Part shown: positions 3,459 to 60,305 of the stretch, in pieces
How the letters are laid out: each line of letters starts with the position of its first letter
Position numbering within the stretch: the stretch's first letter is position 1
IMG/VR virus record: IMGVR_UViG_3300037467_000966
Length of the DNA stretch: 64,000 bases
Reading direction: 5' to 3' (one strand)
DNA from: a virus
Lineage: Duplodnaviria; Heunggongvirae; Uroviricota; Caudoviricetes
Notes under the pieces: generated by a model
Told to the model about the DNA's origin: nothing
Databases searched by the model: none
Seen by the model: only the letters and a program-made list of their open reading frames with translations
Made by a program: the position numbers and the translations under genes

Positions 3459-3884
3459 CTATTTCATTAATGGCTGGATTAAATCTTTACCCCTGAATCC
3501 TTTTCGGTATCGGGCCTGTATAGTAGGATACTTAATGCCTGACACCTCTGACCATTCTTTAAGGCTCTTTGATACACCATCAATTTCAATCTGCATAGCT
3601 GGTCTCTTTGTGGAATGAAACTCTTCCTTTGTTCTCCACCTGCAATTCCATGGAGAAAAGTCTGCGCTTTCATCAATCAGGCAAAGCATCAATCCATCTT
3701 TAAATCCAGTGTCAGTTGCCCAAAGATAGAAGTTAACAGGGTCTTCTAACCAGATGTCACATACCTTAATGCCGCGACCACCATAGCGATGATAATTGTT
3801 GTTGTTTGGATTGTAACACTTGTTCTTCATTTGTTTCCAGATACAATAGATTCTATCCCTCTTTAAACCGTGTCTGTAATTCAT
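3459..3884 (-). CDS. HNH-type endonuclease-like protein (degenerate) with C-terminal HTH
   Basis: CYNPNN..Y..YGGRGIKVC..W and NCRW motifs; the usual IDRIDN core is replaced by LCLIDE. Confidence 0.7.
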   Translation of the reverse strand: MNYRHGLKRDRIYCIWKQMKNKCYNPNNNNYHRYGGRGIKVCDIWLEDPVNFYLWATDTGFKDGLMLCLIDESADFSPWNCRWRTKEEFHSTKRPAMQIEIDGVSKSLKEWSEVSGIKYPTIQARYRKGFRGKDLIQPLMK

Positions 3885-3898
3885 CTTGCCCTCCCTAG

Positions 3899-3923: not shown

Positions 3924-5017
3924 GATATCATTTGATTGTAACGCACTGCACCAGCTGCAGGAACTTCCTTGAAGTATGACATCGCTGGCATAAACTCAAA
4001 GAATACTCTTCCTTTGAAACTACCAAACTTGTTTTTACCGATTTGACATTCAAACACAGGTTGCTTATCTGGAGTAGAAGGGTCTGTCCAGAAGATTTGT
4101 GATTGCTGTCCTCTTAAACCAACTTCATTATAACATAAGACGATTGCCTTGGCTTCGTAAATTATCTTTACCGATTCACGAATGTCATCCAATTTCGGAC
4201 GACGGTTCCCGTTCAGCTTACGGAACTCTGCTGTACAGATAATCGGACAGTCAAACTTAGAAGCAATACGTGATAGCTGGTCAGAGATATAATCGTACTT
4301 ACCATTTCCATCGGAACCAAAGTTTACATCGCGAACCGTAATATCATGGAAGTTATCAATCATTAAAACTATTTGATAGGCTGGGTCAATCTTCGCCAGC
4401 TCTAATGCATAACGCTCCGCTGTTGCTTCAATGTGCTCGATATCAGAACCTTCGTTTACGTCCATCATATTGATATGCATAACACTGTTCTTGAGGTTTT
4501 CAAAGCCTACCTTACGTCTATCCATAAAGTGCTTATTATCCTGATACTTCTTTGGGAAACGTACTGCGTTAATCGGAATCTTCTGGTCAATCGCAACCAG
4601 ACGCGGAAGTAATTCATTGTTACTATCATCGAGTGAGAAGTAAAGAACGAATGCTTTACGCGGATTCTGCGGCGTTGGTATCTGATTACTCTGTGCAATC
4701 TGCCATCCCATCTGCATCATGATACCTGACTTACCTACGTTGGATTGTCCTGCGAATAAGTGAACACCTGTATTCAAACCTTCAAAGGCTTTATTGAATC
4801 CTTCAAAGCCCCAGTCAAGACCACCCTGTTCGCCACGTTTCCATGAGTATTCATCTACATCATTAATTGTCTGTAGCATCTTCGTCTTGAAGAATGGATT
4901 AGTGTCACTCATTACATTGATAGGCAGTGCTGGTACTTCAATTACATTGGGTAGTGCTTCCCCTAAATCTTCGATGCCGTCCATGGTTAGCATCTGTTCT
5001 AAGCTAAACTCTGACAT
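3917..5017 (-). CDS. dnaB: Replicative DNA helicase, DnaB family (SF4)
   Basis: Walker A AGQSNVGKS, LMIDNFH, DDIRESVKIIYEA, IGKNKFG. Confidence 0.9.
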   Translation of the reverse strand: MSEFSLEQMLTMDGIEDLGEALPNVIEVPALPINVMSDTNPFFKTKMLQTINDVDEYSWKRGEQGGLDWGFEGFNKAFEGLNTGVHLFAGQSNVGKSGIMMQMGWQIAQSNQIPTPQNPRKAFVLYFSLDDSNNELLPRLVAIDQKIPINAVRFPKKYQDNKHFMDRRKVGFENLKNSVMHINMMDVNEGSDIEHIEATAERYALELAKIDPAYQIVLMIDNFHDITVRDVNFGSDGNGKYDYISDQLSRIASKFDCPIICTAEFRKLNGNRRPKLDDIRESVKIIYEAKAIVLCYNEVGLRGQQSQIFWTDPSTPDKQPVFECQIGKNKFGSFKGRVFFEFMPAMSYFKEVPAAGAVRYNQMISG

Positions 5018-5267: not shown

Positions 5268-6299
5268 CTACCTCTGTTTAGGCTTTCTATATAATGGACA
5301 TTTCTCTTTCACACAGGTTGCTAATGATTCGAGTGTCGAGCAACCATACTCATAATTGTTATTGTATACGCTTTGCATGGTATTTTTCAATTCCCATTCT
5401 GGCATAGAATCGTTATTCCACTTGACCAAGTTCTCCCATACGCCTTGTTCAGTGTTGCCTTGCTTCTTCCAGAATGATGTAAGTACTGCCGCCGTATTAT
5501 TTCTTAAGCCTTTCTGCGGCCCAACGTCAATTAATTCCTGAATACAATGTGGCGTGAATGTTAATGGCTTTGATTCAAACTTCTTCGAGTTATCAAACTT
5601 CTTGCCATAACGATTTGCCCACTTCTCAATGTTGCTAATATACTCCTGCTTGGCTCTTGTGATTTCATAAGGAGCATCATACTGAATGGCTCTTGGGCCT
5701 TTGGCAAGCTCCTTAATCTCTTCGTGAGACATCATCACCAATTCAAAGTAGGTGAGCGGTATCTTGTAAAGCAACGTGTCTGCGTGACGGCTATTAGCCA
5801 TGCGAAACAAACGGCGGCGGTCATATATCTTTAAGTCTAATGTGCCGTGTGTGACATGTTCTGAAATACCAGTAGCCATTGTCTTATAGTATTCATTCAG
5901 ATGCTTGTCTGGCTCTGCTCCGAATACAGTGGCAGGAACAACAAGATGGAGTCCTTTCTTTCCACTGAAGTAAATACGAATGAAGGCTTCAGGTATGTTA
6001 TAAGTAAACGACTGCTTTAAGTATGTGATAGCGGCAATTGCGTCCTCACGAGCCTTCTCGAAATTATCTTCTGCATCAAAGTCCAGATAAAAATCTGCGT
6101 ACAGGTTTGCTTCCTTCACATCTAGGCTATCATAGATGTAGGCAGTTAGGTAGATGCCTGTGTTGTCATTCTTTTTGCGATATTCCTGTACCTGGTCTAT
6201 CGTCATGTACTCATTGCGGGTGAACTTCCCACCAGGGAGGTTTCTCCCTCCTTCGATATAAATAAACTTACTTGCTTGTTCTTGGGATAACACGGTCAA
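5268..6299 (-). CDS. Archaeo-eukaryotic-type primase/polymerase with PriCT-like C-terminus
   Basis: Motif I LDFD, motif II FSGKKGLH, motif III IYD...FR; C-terminal GLRNN and Cys cluster. Confidence 0.85.
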   Translation of the reverse strand: MTVLSQEQASKFIYIEGGRNLPGGKFTRNEYMTIDQVQEYRKKNDNTGIYLTAYIYDSLDVKEANLYADFYLDFDAEDNFEKAREDAIAAITYLKQSFTYNIPEAFIRIYFSGKKGLHLVVPATVFGAEPDKHLNEYYKTMATGISEHVTHGTLDLKIYDRRRLFRMANSRHADTLLYKIPLTYFELVMMSHEEIKELAKGPRAIQYDAPYEITRAKQEYISNIEKWANRYGKKFDNSKKFESKPLTFTPHCIQELIDVGPQKGLRNNTAAVLTSFWKKQGNTEQGVWENLVKWNNDSMPEWELKNTMQSVYNNNYEYGCSTLESLATCVKEKCPLYRKPKQR

Positions 6300-6987: not shown

Positions 6988-7024
6988 GCTTAGCCAACTC
7001 CTTTACCTTTTCCTTATATAATAT

Positions 7025-34649: not shown

Positions 34650-35340
34650 GAGCCTTTCTTAATTCAAATACCAATTCAAGCTCATGGTCGTATGGCTTAA
34701 TCAAATAGATGGCATCATCATTCTTATAACCGAAGGGAAGATACCAGTAAGGACGTTGCTCTTGGAACGCCTCCAACTCCTGCTTCTCCAGCCAATGCTT
34801 TGGTATGCTTATGGTTTTCTCACCTTTGGAGTTCGTGCTTCCACGCTCTTTGCATTCCATCAAAGCATGATGAAGTTTGATATCACCTTTACTATGCCAC
34901 ATCGCTCCTGAGTTCACCTGGCGCTGCGCTTCTTGCTTTACATATTTCTTAGCAGGCTTTGGTGTATTACCTAAGAAGGTAGGTGCTGTTATTCCTTCAT
35001 CTACTTCTTCTTCTGGTTCATCATCAAAGTCTACACTAATACGTGGCTTTGCAACTGGCTTCTTTTTCTTCTTCGTTCCGAACTTATCATTCCAAGCTCC
35101 AGCTACACGCTTCTCAAAGCCCATACCTTCTTTCTTTTCCTTCTTGTAGGACTTTACTAAAGCATGTTTCTCCGCTTCCTTATTCTCTTCACGGATACGC
35201 ATCTTCTCTTGGAACTCTGCCTTCGGGTCTTTGAAGAGTGCTTCCCCATCGCACAAGTGACACAAAGCATTGTTCGAACAACGTGAATGCATGTCTTCAT
35301 TACACTTGTACTTTCTCATTCTATCACCCACAGTTTTCAT
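34597..35340 (-). CDS. Hjc-like Holliday junction resolvase with N-terminal Cys cluster
   Basis: G..FEKRVA, NSGA....KGDI, LMECK, W.EK...EA. Confidence 0.7.
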   Translation of the reverse strand: MKTVGDRMRKYKCNEDMHSRCSNNALCHLCDGEALFKDPKAEFQEKMRIREENKEAEKHALVKSYKKEKKEGMGFEKRVAGAWNDKFGTKKKKKPVAKPRISVDFDDEPEEEVDEGITAPTFLGNTPKPAKKYVKQEAQRQVNSGAMWHSKGDIKLHHALMECKERGSTNSKGEKTISIPKHWLEKQELEAFQEQRPYWYLPFGYKNDDAIYLIKPYDHELELVFELRKAREEIERLQAELQKLKGQ

Positions 35341-38499: not shown

Positions 38500-38559
38500 A
38501 TCCTATAGCAGTATGCCATAAACGTAACCTGTTACTATGAAACTATCAAGTATTATTTA

Positions 38560-38631
38560 CTGCTCTGGCAGGATTCGAACCTGCGACCTGCGGATTAACA
38601 GTCCGTCGCGCTACCACTACGCCACAGAGCA
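38560..38631 (-). tRNA. tRNA-Asn(GTT), CCA not encoded
   Basis: TGCTCTG/CAGAGCA acceptor; loop CTGTTAA; GCAGG-TTCGAAT-CCTGC T arm. Confidence 0.95.
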
Positions 38632-38778
38632 AAGGTGATATAGGGAACCTAGGTTAACCAAACAAGAAAGGCGCTGTACCAAAAACCTCTGCGGGAGGGA
38701 AAAATGTACAGCTATCACGAAAAGGAGATAATCAATATGAAAGGAGTGTTATATGCAATTACTAGGTTCCCCTTCACA
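38632..38778 (-). ncRNA. Candidate sRNA / tRNA leader with several anti-SD motifs
   Basis: Closing stem 38643-38652 with 38762-38771; inner stem 38673-38679 with 38706-38712; CACTCCTTTC, TCTCCTTTTC, CCCTCCC and GCCTTTC motifs; promoter upstream. Confidence 0.5.
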
Positions 38779-38784
38779 CTATCT

Positions 38785-38814
38785 ATACAAACCATTTTTT
38801 GAGTGTTCTGTCAA
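38785..38814 (-). promoter_or_regulatory. Sigma-A-like promoter for tRNA-Asn leader/cluster
   Basis: TTGACA-18-TTGTAT; spacer resembles promoter at 8321. Confidence 0.55.
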
Positions 38815-38839
38815 CAGGTTTAATTAAAATTTCCTATTT

Positions 38840-39197: not shown

Positions 39198-39217
39198 TTT
39201 ATTTTCCCCCTAAAATG

Positions 39218-39241
39218 AAAAAAGCCACCCCGAAGGATGGC
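39218..39241 (-). terminator. Intrinsic terminator
   Basis: GCCATCC-TTCG-GGGTGGC then T6. Confidence 0.8.
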
Positions 39242-39285
39242 CTTTAAATCCGAACTTTATAAATTAATCAGGAGTTGGTTGGTAT
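39218..39285 (-). ncRNA. Candidate ~68-nt sRNA with 5' anti-SD seed
   Basis: Lies between consensus promoter 39292-39320 and terminator 39218-39241; 5' region CCAACCAACTCCT; no ORF. Confidence 0.55.
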
Positions 39286-39320
39286 ACTTGAAGTATAACC
39301 GATGCATCGCTGTCTGTCAA
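39283..39320 (-). promoter_or_regulatory. Near-consensus sigma-A promoter with palindrome over -10/+1
   Basis: TTGACA-17-TATACT; TATACT-TGA-AGTATA inverted repeat at 39283-39297. Confidence 0.8.
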
Positions 39321-39329
39321 CTTCCTATA

Positions 39330-40037
39330 TTAATTTACAATTGTAATCTCAATTGTTCTTCGTCCCCATTGTAATGCATCATGGGTACTAGGAAAGTGGA
39401 CATCAATTTCATGTCCGTTAATGCCGCCGCCAGTATCGGCAGCAACTGCATAGCCATAGCCTGGTACATAAACTTTCGTACCTAGGGGAATAACATTAGG
39501 GTCTACCGCAATAACCTTAGCGTGCGGATTCGCGGCTAGATTATATCCTGTAGCTGTAATACCTGTACATCCCTCGCTGCATGTAGCTATGTATCCTGTC
39601 GCTTCAACAGTCACCTTACGTCCCTGTGGTGATTTTGTTGAAGGAAGGGTACTAGCGGCAATCGCCTTCCCTTCATTGGCTTTCTTAAAAGCCAGCTCCT
39701 TCTCCAAATCTTTAATCTTAGCTTGAAGAGTTTCCCTCTCGGTTTCAAAACTCTCCGTTGCTTTTTGATTATCAGCTTTCTGTTTACCGAGCTGTTCACT
39801 TAATTTATTCACTTGGTCATTAAGTTGTTTGAGTTCCCTTTTCTGATTCACCAATGTATCTTTCTGTTGGTCTATCAGACTCCCTTGCTCGTTCAGCTTT
39901 TGCTGATACTCGTGAATAAGTTTATCCTGCTTTTGTACGGTATAACCTTCATACCCTACGCCAGCTACCAGTAGCGCCCCAATGCCTGCTGCGATAACCT
40001 TATTCCGTATACGTCTGGGGTTGTCTTTATGGCCCAT
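39330..40037 (-). CDS. Membrane-anchored coiled-coil plus 3D-domain (YocH/MltA-like) cell-wall protein
   Basis: TM helix, long coiled coil, VEATGY, IAVDPNVIPLGT, AADTGG.I.G..IDV. Confidence 0.9.
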   Translation of the reverse strand: MGHKDNPRRIRNKVIAAGIGALLVAGVGYEGYTVQKQDKLIHEYQQKLNEQGSLIDQQKDTLVNQKRELKQLNDQVNKLSEQLGKQKADNQKATESFETERETLQAKIKDLEKELAFKKANEGKAIAASTLPSTKSPQGRKVTVEATGYIATCSEGCTGITATGYNLAANPHAKVIAVDPNVIPLGTKVYVPGYGYAVAADTGGGINGHEIDVHFPSTHDALQWGRRTIEITIVN

Positions 40038-52966: not shown

Positions 52967-53401
52967 TTAGAAAGGTGCTCCGCCTGCGTATGGGTCTGGT
53001 GTATAAGCAGGTTCTTGTGGTGGTGGTGTTTGACGTTGATATCCTCCGCCACCTTGACCGCCGCCAGAATCTTTCGCGCTGCCTAAGAACTGAACCTTAT
53101 CAGCGTGCAACTCCCATACATCGCGTGGGTATTCAGCACCTTCTGGTGTCTTCGCTGTGTAAGTACGCTTTTGCATGCGTCCTGTTACTAATACCTCACG
53201 ACCCTTGGTTAGGTACTTGCCGACATTCTCAGCTTGCTTTCTCCAAACTACTACATCATAGAAGTCTGTGCCTTCTCCGTAATCACGGTCACAAGCCACT
53301 GCAAAGTTAGCAACTGCTGTTTCTTGTCCTCCTACCATTACATTGCGAACCTCTGGGTCCTTTGTTAAACGTCCTACTACAAATGTTTGAGATAAACTCA
53401 T
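52967..53401 (-). CDS. ssb: Single-stranded DNA-binding protein
   Basis: GRLTKDPE.R, VA.F.VA.DR, DFY.VV.W...AE....YL.KG..V.V.GR; C-terminal PF. Confidence 0.96.
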   Translation of the reverse strand: MSLSQTFVVGRLTKDPEVRNVMVGGQETAVANFAVACDRDYGEGTDFYDVVVWRKQAENVGKYLTKGREVLVTGRMQKRTYTAKTPEGAEYPRDVWELHADKVQFLGSAKDSGGGQGGGGYQRQTPPPQEPAYTPDPYAGGAPF

Positions 53402-53555
53402 ACCAAAACAACTCCTAATATCTATTTATTTTTGAGAGCATAATGCTCTACTGACAGGATATAATAGACTTACATCCTCTAAGTAAAGCACTATGGTAGG
53501 AGACCGCTAGTATTCAGCGGCCTTTTTATTGTACCATAATGTCAAGACATCGTCA

Positions 53556-58019: not shown

Positions 58020-58466
58020 CTACTCTGTTAAGTCAGACCAGTTTAAAGATGACGCCGTAATTTTATCAGCAGTCAATGAACCATTGTTAATGTAAGAAGC
58101 TGTAAGGCCGCGGAATGAACCTGACCAATCAAATTTGTTTTCAAAGATTTGCTCATACTCATTGTTTCCATAACTGCCTGCCGCATCAATCTCAACGTTT
58201 GTTTCCACATGAACACCTAGCTTACGAAGAAGCTTGTCATAAGAATGAACATGGTAACCTGGCTTGTGTGGCTCATTCGGACGCTTCACGAATTCTCCAC
58301 CTTCACCTGCTGCTTGAGACCATGCTTTCAAATCATTGCTCCACTTTTCATACTCGACTTTCCAAGCCTCTAATTGAAGCTTGTACTCCTCGATGTGCTT
58401 CTCACGATTTACTGTTAATAAGTCCTTTGCTTGTTGAACATTTACGATTAGTTTCAAACCAACCAC
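58020..58466 (-). CDS. Hypothetical protein
   Basis: AGGAG RBS. Confidence 0.65.
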   Translation of the reverse strand: MVGLKLIVNVQQAKDLLTVNREKHIEEYKLQLEAWKVEYEKWSNDLKAWSQAAGEGGEFVKRPNEPHKPGYHVHSYDKLLRKLGVHVETNVEIDAAGSYGNNEYEQIFENKFDWSGSFRGLTASYINNGSLTADKITASSLNWSDLTE

Positions 58467-58469
58467 TCC

Positions 58470-59555
58470 TTAATGATTAATTAATCTATCGGCAGCCAAC
58501 ACGAAGCTGGCACGACCAAACGTTTTAATGCTTGTATATGGAATACCATTGTTCTTGCAGAATGGAACAGCCCATTGTGTGCCGCCATGTCCTACATGTC
58601 CCAATGTCATAATCAAACAGCTAGAGCGCTTCAAGATACCAGCAAGGGAATCTCTTGCTTCTCTTCCTGTAATGCCAATGAATTCACCGCCGCGTCTTTC
58701 CACTTCATCACGGAAGTCAGACCAGCCTGGCTCATAACCCATACAACAGATAGTCTTACCAACAAATACTTGGTCTACTTCATCCTTACCATCTGTTTTC
58801 TTTTTATAGTATCCTGATGGTTTTGGCGTTTCAATGTTTCTCATTTCAGAGACGGAATGCCGCCATCTCACCTTTGGATTCTCTGGGTTGTTCTCGTAGA
58901 ATGCCAAGTCAATCACGTCATCTTCTTGTAACTTAAATGCGCGTGCATCATCTTCTATAATTGGAAGTACAAGCTTTTCTTGTCCTAGATAGATGCCATC
59001 GCCTCCTGCTGTCTTTGTAACAGCGAAGCCACTTTCAGTAGAAGGATAATATTCAACAATGCCATACTTCACTTCTATGATACCCTGTGGTGCCTTACCT
59101 GGGCCGCGTTCCACTAGCTCATATTCATAATGGTCAGGACCATCTTCTACTTCTTTAAGTAATGTTGCATATACTAGGTCACCATGATACAAATCTAATT
59201 CATTAATTATCTTTTCAGGAACGAAGGCATCAATCTCTGGAATGTATCCGCCACGAATCCTTCTTTCAAACCGATAAGGAATCTTTCCATCGTCAGCATC
59301 AACTGTTTCTGATTCTTCTAATAATTTAGCAAAGTCTTCTTCTTCCTCGAATGGAACTTCAGTGTGTTTAATTTCTTCCTGCACTGGTACAGCCACAGGA
59401 TGAAGCTTTAATAAGTCTCTTGTTGAATAGAGGATAACAAATATCCTAGTGAAATCTTTCTCCATCTCGGCCAAGTTATCGTAGTCTAATTGTTCCACAA
59501 CCTGTCTTAGATGTTCCTTGCTCATACCTAATACTTGCTCTTTCATTCCAACCAC
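58470..59555 (-). CDS. Protein with C-terminal DUF2325-like domain
   Basis: TICCMG....FR..VE.RGG.F, LK.S.C.I......GH.......CK...IPY. Confidence 0.6.
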   Translation of the reverse strand: MVGMKEQVLGMSKEHLRQVVEQLDYDNLAEMEKDFTRIFVILYSTRDLLKLHPVAVPVQEEIKHTEVPFEEEEDFAKLLEESETVDADDGKIPYRFERRIRGGYIPEIDAFVPEKIINELDLYHGDLVYATLLKEVEDGPDHYEYELVERGPGKAPQGIIEVKYGIVEYYPSTESGFAVTKTAGGDGIYLGQEKLVLPIIEDDARAFKLQEDDVIDLAFYENNPENPKVRWRHSVSEMRNIETPKPSGYYKKKTDGKDEVDQVFVGKTICCMGYEPGWSDFRDEVERRGGEFIGITGREARDSLAGILKRSSCLIMTLGHVGHGGTQWAVPFCKNNGIPYTSIKTFGRASFVLAADRLINH

Positions 59556-59563
59556 TCCTAATG

Positions 59564-60074: not shown

Positions 60075-60281
60075 TTATTCCTCCCTTGCGATAGCCGCAT
60101 TAGCCCAGAACATTGCTTCTTCAAGTTTTGTAATGGCAAGCGACTTCTCACGCGAATTAGGACAAAGCTCATCAATTTTATAAGCTGCTGCCTTAAGAGT
60201 CGCACGAATCGTTTCGTACTTCTCAGGCTGCCCTTCTTTCGGCGCATGATAGTTAAAGTTATTTTCATATTGCGGATTCAT
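60075..60281 (-). CDS. Acb2/Tad1-hairpin-like protein (candidate signal-molecule sponge)
   Basis: FNYHAP...CP.SREKSLAITKLEEAMFWANAAIAR; ATG 60281 after GGAG. Confidence 0.65.
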   Translation of the reverse strand: MNPQYENNFNYHAPKEGQPEKYETIRATLKAAAYKIDELCPNSREKSLAITKLEEAMFWANAAIAREE

Positions 60282-60305
60282 CCCAACCAACTCCATTCAA
60301 TTGTA

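Follow-up and report, generated by a model that had tools for sequence, protein, structure and literature searches.

Among the Firmicutes, small RNAs (sRNAs) such as RoxS/RsaE and LhrC are short transcripts with their own promoter and intrinsic terminator, which direct an unpaired pyrimidine seed against Shine-Dalgarno (SD) sequences and have several predicted mRNA targets. Other sRNAs, of the MicL/DapZ type, start from a separate promoter that is located at the 3' end of a protein-coding gene. DicF of the Qin prophage and further phage and prophage sRNAs (PMC12197685) are phage-borne, trans-acting RNAs of ~50-70 nt that are predicted to block ribosome binding sites (RBSs); they originate from Gram-negative temperate phages and have mostly host targets, and Bacillus is unmentioned in this 2025 review of phage-derived sRNAs. 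The c4 RNA of P1/P7 and the sar RNA of P22 mask the RBS of a phage gene, both acting on the adjacent ant operon as immunity functions. In T4, the RegA protein and the autoregulation of gp32 impose a post-transcriptional limit on replication and recombination genes by occluding initiation regions, and one of the regulated genes is of the ssb type and has an A/U-rich leader (PMC3014915, PMC535899). T4-like phages also contain PeSL cassettes, which are composite elements with the order terminator then promoter and occur in many dispersed copies (PMC2839356, PMC4122927).

The locus described here lies in a 64,000-nt stretch of viral DNA (the whole of which is called the window in the following) and encodes a predicted ~70-nt RNA that has the features named above for RoxS/RsaE and LhrC. 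However, it has no sequence or Rfam relationship to these RNAs. Their hallmark, two or more C-rich motifs in hairpin loops, is missing in the phage sRNA, which carries a single CUCCU in a linear tail; its seed of ~28 nt is located at the extreme 5' end instead of in hairpin loops and also covers the spacer and the start codon, and it is encoded by a lytic jumbo phage. In contrast to DicF and the sRNAs compiled in PMC12197685, the best predicted target is the phage's own ssb gene, and, unlike the ant operon addressed by c4 and sar, this target is 14 kb away from an RNA that has its own promoter and no immunity context. The resemblance to the T4 regulators concerns the type of gene and the occlusion of its initiation region, but these regulators are proteins whereas the regulator proposed here is an RNA. 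As in MicL and DapZ, the promoter lies within or just past the end of the upstream gene, here a 3D-domain gene, and the terminator is common to both; however, in two lineages (L013 and L027) an ORF parts the unit from the 3D gene, so that the unit is not tied to the 3D 3' UTR. The hallmarks of PeSL cassettes were not found, as the unit is single copy in 264 kb and has the order promoter then terminator, nor were those of antitermination or attenuator leaders (lambda PR'/qut, HK022 put, RAT-type), as the terminator is the only conserved structure and the downstream genes differ. Two features of the generic class of trans-acting sRNAs were present, namely an independent unit (promoter, Rho-independent terminator, no ORF) and a conserved unpaired seed. 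As far as can be judged from sequence, the phage sRNA would be akin in its action to the SD-masking sRNAs of Firmicutes and to DicF, c4 and sar, although neither its sequence nor its structure corresponds to any of these.

Results

Genome context and organization of the sRNA unit

The window corresponds to G000:C1:160423-224422, read on the reverse strand. The 264,094 bp of G000 form one virus record, which has 41.9% GC and is rated complete; the nearest matches of its proteins are Bacillus phage proteins, and it is a Bacillus-type jumbo phage. The genes around the sRNA unit are located on the minus strand inside a long block of replication and nucleotide-metabolism genes. A replication origin at the sRNA locus was rejected because the cumulative GC skew turns at ~93 and ~205 kb and has no inflection at 185 kb, the position of the locus. 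The unit comprises the following features.

39330, minus strand: stop of the 3D-domain gene, directly preceding the promoter
39315-39320, minus strand: -35 box TTGACA, invariant in 10/10 lineages
39298-39314, minus strand: promoter spacer of 17 nt, invariant in length, with 35-47% identity to the window in distant relatives
39292-39297, minus strand: -10 box TATACT (TATACT in 8 lineages, TATAAT in 2)
39214-39285, minus strand: predicted ~70-nt sRNA with its putative +1 at A39285 and its 3' end in the U tract
39258-39285, minus strand: conserved 5' region without base pairs (seed) AUACCAACCAACUCCUGAUUAAUUUAUA, which also stays single-stranded in the RNAalifold consensus
39220-39245, minus strand: intrinsic terminator hairpin of 11 bp with UUCG loop, followed by a U tract (39214-39219)

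A preliminary description of this DNA had reported a near-consensus TTGACA-17-TATACT promoter (39320-39292, minus strand) that faces a UUCG terminator only ~45-65 nt away with no ORF in between, and our analysis confirmed this arrangement, with ~70 nt predicted to be transcribed from the promoter into the terminator. The minus-strand transcript from the likely +1 begins AUACCAACCAACUCCUG, the stretch between the probable +1 (A39285) and the terminator hairpin reads AUACCAACCAACUCCUGAUUAAUUUAUAAAGUUCGGAUUU, and the terminator is composed of AAAGGCCAUCC-UUCG-GGGUGGCUUU and the U tract (39245-39214, minus strand). No plausible ORF was found in the interval from promoter to terminator, in which the sole start-like triplet is a GTG within the terminator stem; a 50-aa ORF with SD and ATG (39197) is located directly after the U tract. 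In the predicted fold of the 72-nt RNA (-18 kcal/mol, z -2.2) the 5' end is free and the terminator is the only hairpin, and the single CUCCU of the seed lies in the linear 5' tail. This 5' region is the reverse complement of a full translation-initiation region, in which an A/U-rich block is followed by AGGAG, then by a G/U-rich spacer of 9 nt and finally by the AU of AUG. With a covariance model (R1) one copy was detected in the 264-kb genome (83 bits, E 8e-17), while in an Rfam search only tRNAs passed, the best matches over the sRNA reaching 15-22 bits vs. cut-offs of 47-55.

Sigma-A-like promoters with at least 11/12 matches occur 8 times in the 264-kb genome compared to 7.6 times in shuffles. 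Since the promoter score is thus no better than in shuffled sequence, the promoter is supported by its conservation and not by its score. Judged by the same count, strong host-type promoters appear to be rare in this genome. A palindrome overlapping the -10 box and +1, which had been thought to suggest regulation, is indeed present, but the proposed role as an operator was rejected, since in L003 and L004 the -10 box reads TATAAT though the right arm has not changed, L013 is without the right arm, and no compensatory change or covariation between the arms was found in these lineages. A 45-aa ORF on the plus strand (39237-39374, with AGGAG as SD) was also rejected; a 1-nt indel in the conserved block distinguishes the window from all relatives, and the conservation is not codon-wise.

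Conservation of the unit among related phages

Relatives were found via a graded series of 3D-protein homologues whose contigs, derived from metagenomes or assemblies, were then examined. In addition to the window, nine further lineages carry the sRNA unit (L001, L003, L004, L005, L009, L010, L011, L013 and L027; n=10 including the window; the L013 contig is JASMRE010000002.1 of GCA_030143775.1), and their 3D proteins are 86% to 49% identical. While the promoter spacer is always 17 nt long, its identity decays to 35%, and boxes and spacing that stay fixed around a diverging spacer sequence are what marks a functional promoter. Over the first 28 transcribed nt, identity is 93-96% in seven lineages and 75-82% in the two variants L013 and L027, in agreement with the seed conservation to be expected in related phages for the sRNA of the preliminary description. 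By comparison, the 3' end of the 3D gene is 67-71% identical in distant lineages, below the value of the sRNA 5' region, and the sRNA beyond its first 28 nt drifts to 50-70% identity. In L013 the seed reads AAACCAACUCCUGAAUAAAUAUUG, with one CCAA unit fewer and no GUAUA, and in L027 it reads AUACCAACCAACUUCCUUUUCUGAUUAAUUAUUG, with a 6-nt insertion and the pyrimidine anti-SD CUUCCUUUUCU kept. The terminator hairpin is the only consensus structure found by RNAalifold, and 6 of its 11 pairs have changed on both sides with the pairing retained, the stem changes including G-U intermediates. The comparison of the 10 lineages hence supports the predicted small RNA that extends from promoter to terminator and exposes an anti-SD seed at its 5' end. 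Judged by this comparison, the unit is an autonomous, single-copy gene for a predicted sRNA under strong selection, and it represents a real, conserved and previously uncatalogued family of predicted phage sRNAs.

No relatives were obtained in single-protein scans of viral contigs with the 3D protein and with P0003 (38840-39082), the product encoded downstream of the unit; likewise, tblastn of P0003 against phages gave no match, and in megablast and blastn searches against phages only a tRNA or the 3D domain was matched. An alignment-based scan of viral contigs yielded 11 distant 3D loci, none of them with the sRNA. For an exact 21-mer there were 0 matches in viral or genome contigs and 1 match in metagenome contigs (L012), located inside a coding region. 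A degenerate 20-mer gave 11 matches in unrelated taxa that had no promoter or terminator context and were judged to be due to chance, and a 275-kb contig (L026) encoding a 3D protein with 46% identity was dismissed as belonging to another phage, since it showed neither synteny nor the sRNA.

The gene downstream of the unit varies by lineage, being an 87-aa ORF, a 48-aa ORF, a 161-aa ORF or an SNase gene. In most lineages it starts 15-30 nt past the terminator; in L003 another promoter is located directly after the sRNA terminator, and in L013 ~150 nt and a second terminator lie between the unit and the next gene. P0003 is conserved downstream in L001 and L005-L008. Since no separate promoter lies between the terminator and this conserved gene, termination is probably leaky; the sRNA promoter may also feed downstream genes. 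The neighbouring DNA shows further peculiarities. The extra ORF between the 3D gene and the sRNA promoter in L013 (10707-11231, 174 aa) and L027 (10759-11340, 193 aa) looks like mobile-gene traffic around the module, that of L013 resembling the window ORF 3510-3890. A neighbouring promoter with a ~147-nt leader RNA and a tRNA (window 38500-38830, minus strand) is conserved with ~66-76% identity in L001-L011, and in L003 it is this promoter/leader RNA/tRNA unit that directly follows the sRNA terminator.

Predicted targets of the seed

The sites considered as targets in the following are listed here.

53399-53426, minus strand: translation-initiation region of ssb (gene 52967-53401; Pfam SSB, E 2e-21), predicted target
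60283-60294, minus strand: RBS of the Acb2/Tad1-like gene (60075-60281), 12/12 complementary, duplex of -24.6 kcal/mol
58459-58470, minus strand: RBS of the 145-aa gene that starts at 58457, with a strong duplex (-24.8 to -27.2 kcal/mol) confined to this genome, the L029 orthologue having -12.5 kcal/mol
59548-59559, minus strand: RBS of the DUF2325 gene (start 59546), -22.7 kcal/mol here and -8.4 kcal/mol for the L029 orthologue

The real 26-nt seed was scored against 295 RBS windows, and the null consisted of block-shuffled seeds in which CUCC and the composition of both flanks were retained. The five best windows had a mean of -23.8 kcal/mol for the real seed compared to -19.2 +/- 1.5 kcal/mol for shuffled seeds (0/250), the ten best had a mean of -22.3 compared to -18.1 +/- 1.3 kcal/mol (0/250), and 16 windows were at -18 kcal/mol or below vs. 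4.9 in the null. However, the mean duplex energy over all 295 RBS windows was equal to the null, and this difference between the best windows and the overall mean suggests that the seed matches a subset of sites and not SDs generally. The top windows were those of the 145-aa gene (58457), the Acb2-like gene, the Pol III alpha-like gene, ssb, the DUF2325 gene, the DndB-like gene, the Cas4-like nuclease gene and recA, with uvrD ranking lower.

Orthologues could be compared along a syntenic stretch of ~30 kb that is shared by three genomes (the window; L029 and L011; L028 and L027), which provided 21 triplets. Among these ssb was an outlier, with predicted sRNA duplexes of -24.6 kcal/mol in the window and -28.1 and -23.7 kcal/mol in the two relatives, while the next triplet had a mean of -18.1 kcal/mol; as the three genomes are related by descent and both partners are inherited, these values are not independent. 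In shuffles, which ignore phylogeny and the general resemblance to a translation-initiation region, the best triplet had -15.9 +/- 1.3 kcal/mol and 0/300 reached ssb. Within the individual genomes ssb ranked 1st of 51 genes in the L011 lineage, joint 1st of 54 in the L027 lineage and joint 2nd of 62 in the window. The ssb duplex covers nt 1-28 of the sRNA (1-34 in L027) and involves the AU-rich block, the SD and the AU of AUG: the AUACCA(A) of the sRNA pairs with (U)UGGUAU of ssb, to which the first two letters (AU) of the start codon belong, the ssb SD is bound by the anti-SD, and the sequence upstream of this SD is bound by the AU-rich distal block. The 6-nt insertion in the L027 sRNA is compensated at its own ssb site by a 13-bp AU-rich distal block, the middle of the duplex being weaker, and in a 3x3 matrix of sRNAs and ssb sites every cognate pair was the best in its column. 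Complementarity to ssb was kept in 3/3 related genomes, while four other candidates (59546, 58457 and 39082; recA in L029) were not kept. From these comparisons, the translation-initiation region of ssb emerges as the best conserved and best-supported predicted target.

Further observations concern the leader of ssb and the neighbouring genes. The ssb leader contains a hairpin, GUAGAGCAUUAUGCUCUC (window 53427-53460, minus strand; L029 ~6215-6250; L028 ~4760-4790), which is conserved in position, varies in its stem and is followed by an A/U-rich unstructured stretch, an arrangement that recalls the T4 gene 32 translational operator. By analogy, the conservation of the ssb leader may have a different cause, e.g. 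SSB autoregulation as with T4 gp32 (PMC535899). In L029 (7095-9087), recA is present in two pieces (202 and 163 aa) split by a 209-aa ORF, which suggests an intron, intein or homing-endonuclease insertion in the L011 lineage. RBSs of the form AAGGAGUUG(G/A), with a weak, repeated partial complementarity to the seed, recur at orthologous genes, namely a 150-aa gene that follows thymidylate kinase and a gene for an SNF2 helicase (window 36099 and 32245; L009 20393; L011 19189; L013 18521).

The complementary sites named in the preliminary description are all present: GGAGTTGGTTGG at 60283-60294 (minus strand), 1 nt upstream of the ATG of a 68-aa gene, AGGAGTGGTTGG at 59548 and 58459, and AGGAGTTGG at 6994 and 39089; a further copy of AGGAGTTGG lies at 34773. 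The gene 60075-60281 was correctly recognized as Acb2/Tad1-like, its product being an Acb2_Tad1 hairpin protein (Pfam PF24729, E 1.4e-23). A count of the 12-mer with at most one mismatch, of the kind proposed earlier as an estimate of chance, gave 4 matches vs. 0.21 expected. At least 12 contiguous complementary nt to one of the 295 RBS windows were also reached by 3.5% of 1411 genomic CTCC-centred pseudo-seeds and by 6.4% of the flank-shuffled seeds. Since any seed with an anti-SD core easily finds an RBS, the 12/12 match is not exceptional, and the Acb2/Tad1 RBS is not supported as the defining target. In L029, which belongs to the L011 lineage and has an identical seed, the orthologues of 59546 and 58457 have non-complementary RBSs, and the initiation region of recA shows no complementarity to the seed; neither L001 nor L005, which likewise carry the identical seed, has the match of the P0003 RBS (start 39082). 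As targets, the genes with starts at 59546, 58457 and 39082 are thus not upheld, and the suggested locus of sRNAs controlling anti-defence genes was not supported. The Acb2-like orthologue P0125 is 94% identical; L029 ends one gene short of the Acb2-like orthologue and L028 stops before that region. A second gene-strand copy of GGAGTTGGTTGG is located outside the window (L042; G000:C1:138570-138581, equivalent to window position 85842-85853) and forms a duplex of -28 kcal/mol, stronger than any other in the genome. This second copy does not constitute an RBS and lies inside a stable 5' UTR hairpin ~35 nt upstream of the SD of a 589-aa ORF without Pfam match; this copy could be a decoy or standby site, or it could be due to chance.

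Discussion

Several other explanations for the conserved unit were weighed against an sRNA that addresses ssb. That the sRNA mainly represses the Acb2/Tad1-like anti-defence gene (60075-60281) and its neighbours by 12-nt SD pairing seems quite unlikely to us. The gene encodes a true Acb2_Tad1 hairpin protein, its RBS is fully complementary 1 nt upstream of the ATG, and the duplex of -24.6 kcal/mol is within the top three of the 295 RBS windows, but matches of at least 12 nt are also found in the 3.5-6.4% of control seeds mentioned above and the neighbouring proposed targets are non-complementary in L029. Moreover, the seed is invariant in lineages that are 50% diverged, the conserved sRNA region reaches 14 nt past the part pairing with the Acb2 RBS, and Acb2 proteins form a widespread family (2854 matches), of which none among the 120 matches listed was found on a relative's long contig. 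An RNA that mimics the 3' tail of 16S rRNA and damps many AGGAGU-type messages of host or phage, with no specific target, would explain why the CUCCU is flanked by A/C-rich sequence, which we take to resemble the B. subtilis 16S tail, and would fit the CUUCCUUUUCU of the L027 variant and the many RBSs of the lineage that read GGAGUUGG or GGAGUGGU. We nevertheless give such a general SD competitor very little credence, given that the commonest SD is AGGAGG (77 genes vs. 32 with AGGAGT), which mismatches the seed, that the duplex energy, averaged over all RBSs, is the same as in the null, and that the conservation reaches well past the anti-SD.

A role in cis is an unlikely, though somewhat less remote, alternative. 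The promoter would in this case serve the downstream genes, the 5' segment and the terminator would form an attenuator (phage-antiterminator site or sigma-dependent pause), and the short RNA would be a by-product. Read-through must occur where P0003 is conserved downstream (L001, L005-L008), in most lineages the U tract and the next SD are 10-30 nt apart and no promoter separates them, TATACC at +2 to +7, the putative pause element, repeats the -10 box, and in the read-through fold of L004 and L005 the CUCCU pairs with the next SD. However, this cis pairing does not recur consistently from lineage to lineage, L013 has no +2 to +7 repeat, and the unit is followed directly by a separate promoter in L003 and by ~150 nt and a second terminator in L013. 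A pure leader or attenuator role is made less likely by downstream genes that are unrelated between lineages and by the fact that no antiterminator pairing or other alternative structure is conserved, the terminator being the only consensus structure. Least probable of all, to a degree that we hardly reckon with it, is an element that acts as DNA and not as RNA, be it an operator, an origin-associated unwinding site or a PeSL-type recombination cassette. The conserved stretch is AT-rich and partly palindromic, and gene content changes exactly at the module, as at PeSL cassettes (PMC2839356, PMC4122927); yet the unit is present in one copy per genome, in contrast to multicopy PeSLs, and has the order promoter then terminator, its stem has undergone compensatory changes as are typical of RNA, with G-U intermediates among them, the conserved block tolerates an insertion of 6 nt (L027), and the GC skew turns at ~93 and ~205 kb and not at 185 kb.

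Our preferred reading, in which we have moderate confidence, is that the unit is an autonomous gene of Bacillus-type jumbo phages for a ~70-nt non-coding RNA, which would repress translation by base pairing in trans and would have ssb as its conserved primary target. Starting from the established gene and its conservation pattern, structure and complementarity, we infer the following course of transcription, action in trans, repression and choice of target. Transcription would be initiated at ~39285 by a host sigma-A-type promoter, which implies expression by the host RNA polymerase and probably at an early stage, and would end at ~39216 at the strong intrinsic terminator. The resulting sRNA, consisting of the unstructured, near-invariant ~28-nt 5' region and the terminator hairpin, would pair in trans with phage mRNAs and mask their SD and start codon, and pairing over both of these elements is expected to lower translation. 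The ssb message would be the conserved primary target, while recA and the Pol III alpha-like and uvrD genes, and in this phage also the Acb2-like gene, may represent weaker or lineage-specific targets.

A more far-reaching interpretation, which we put forward tentatively and consider doubtful, is that the sRNA represents the RNA counterpart of T4 RegA. Its 28-nt 5' end would then co-evolve with the ssb leader and set the level or timing of a replication and recombination regulon (ssb, recA, Pol III alpha-like and uvrD genes) clade-wide in Gram-positive jumbo phages, and accessory genes such as Acb2 could join this regulon by acquiring a matching RBS. The unit stands out by unusually clean support from the comparison of lineages, and the seed variants of L013 and L027 represent natural compensatory-mutation experiments. 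If the prediction holds, the replication proteins of these phages would be under RNA-based control, and the anti-RBS RNA would offer a simple handle for tuning phage gene expression.
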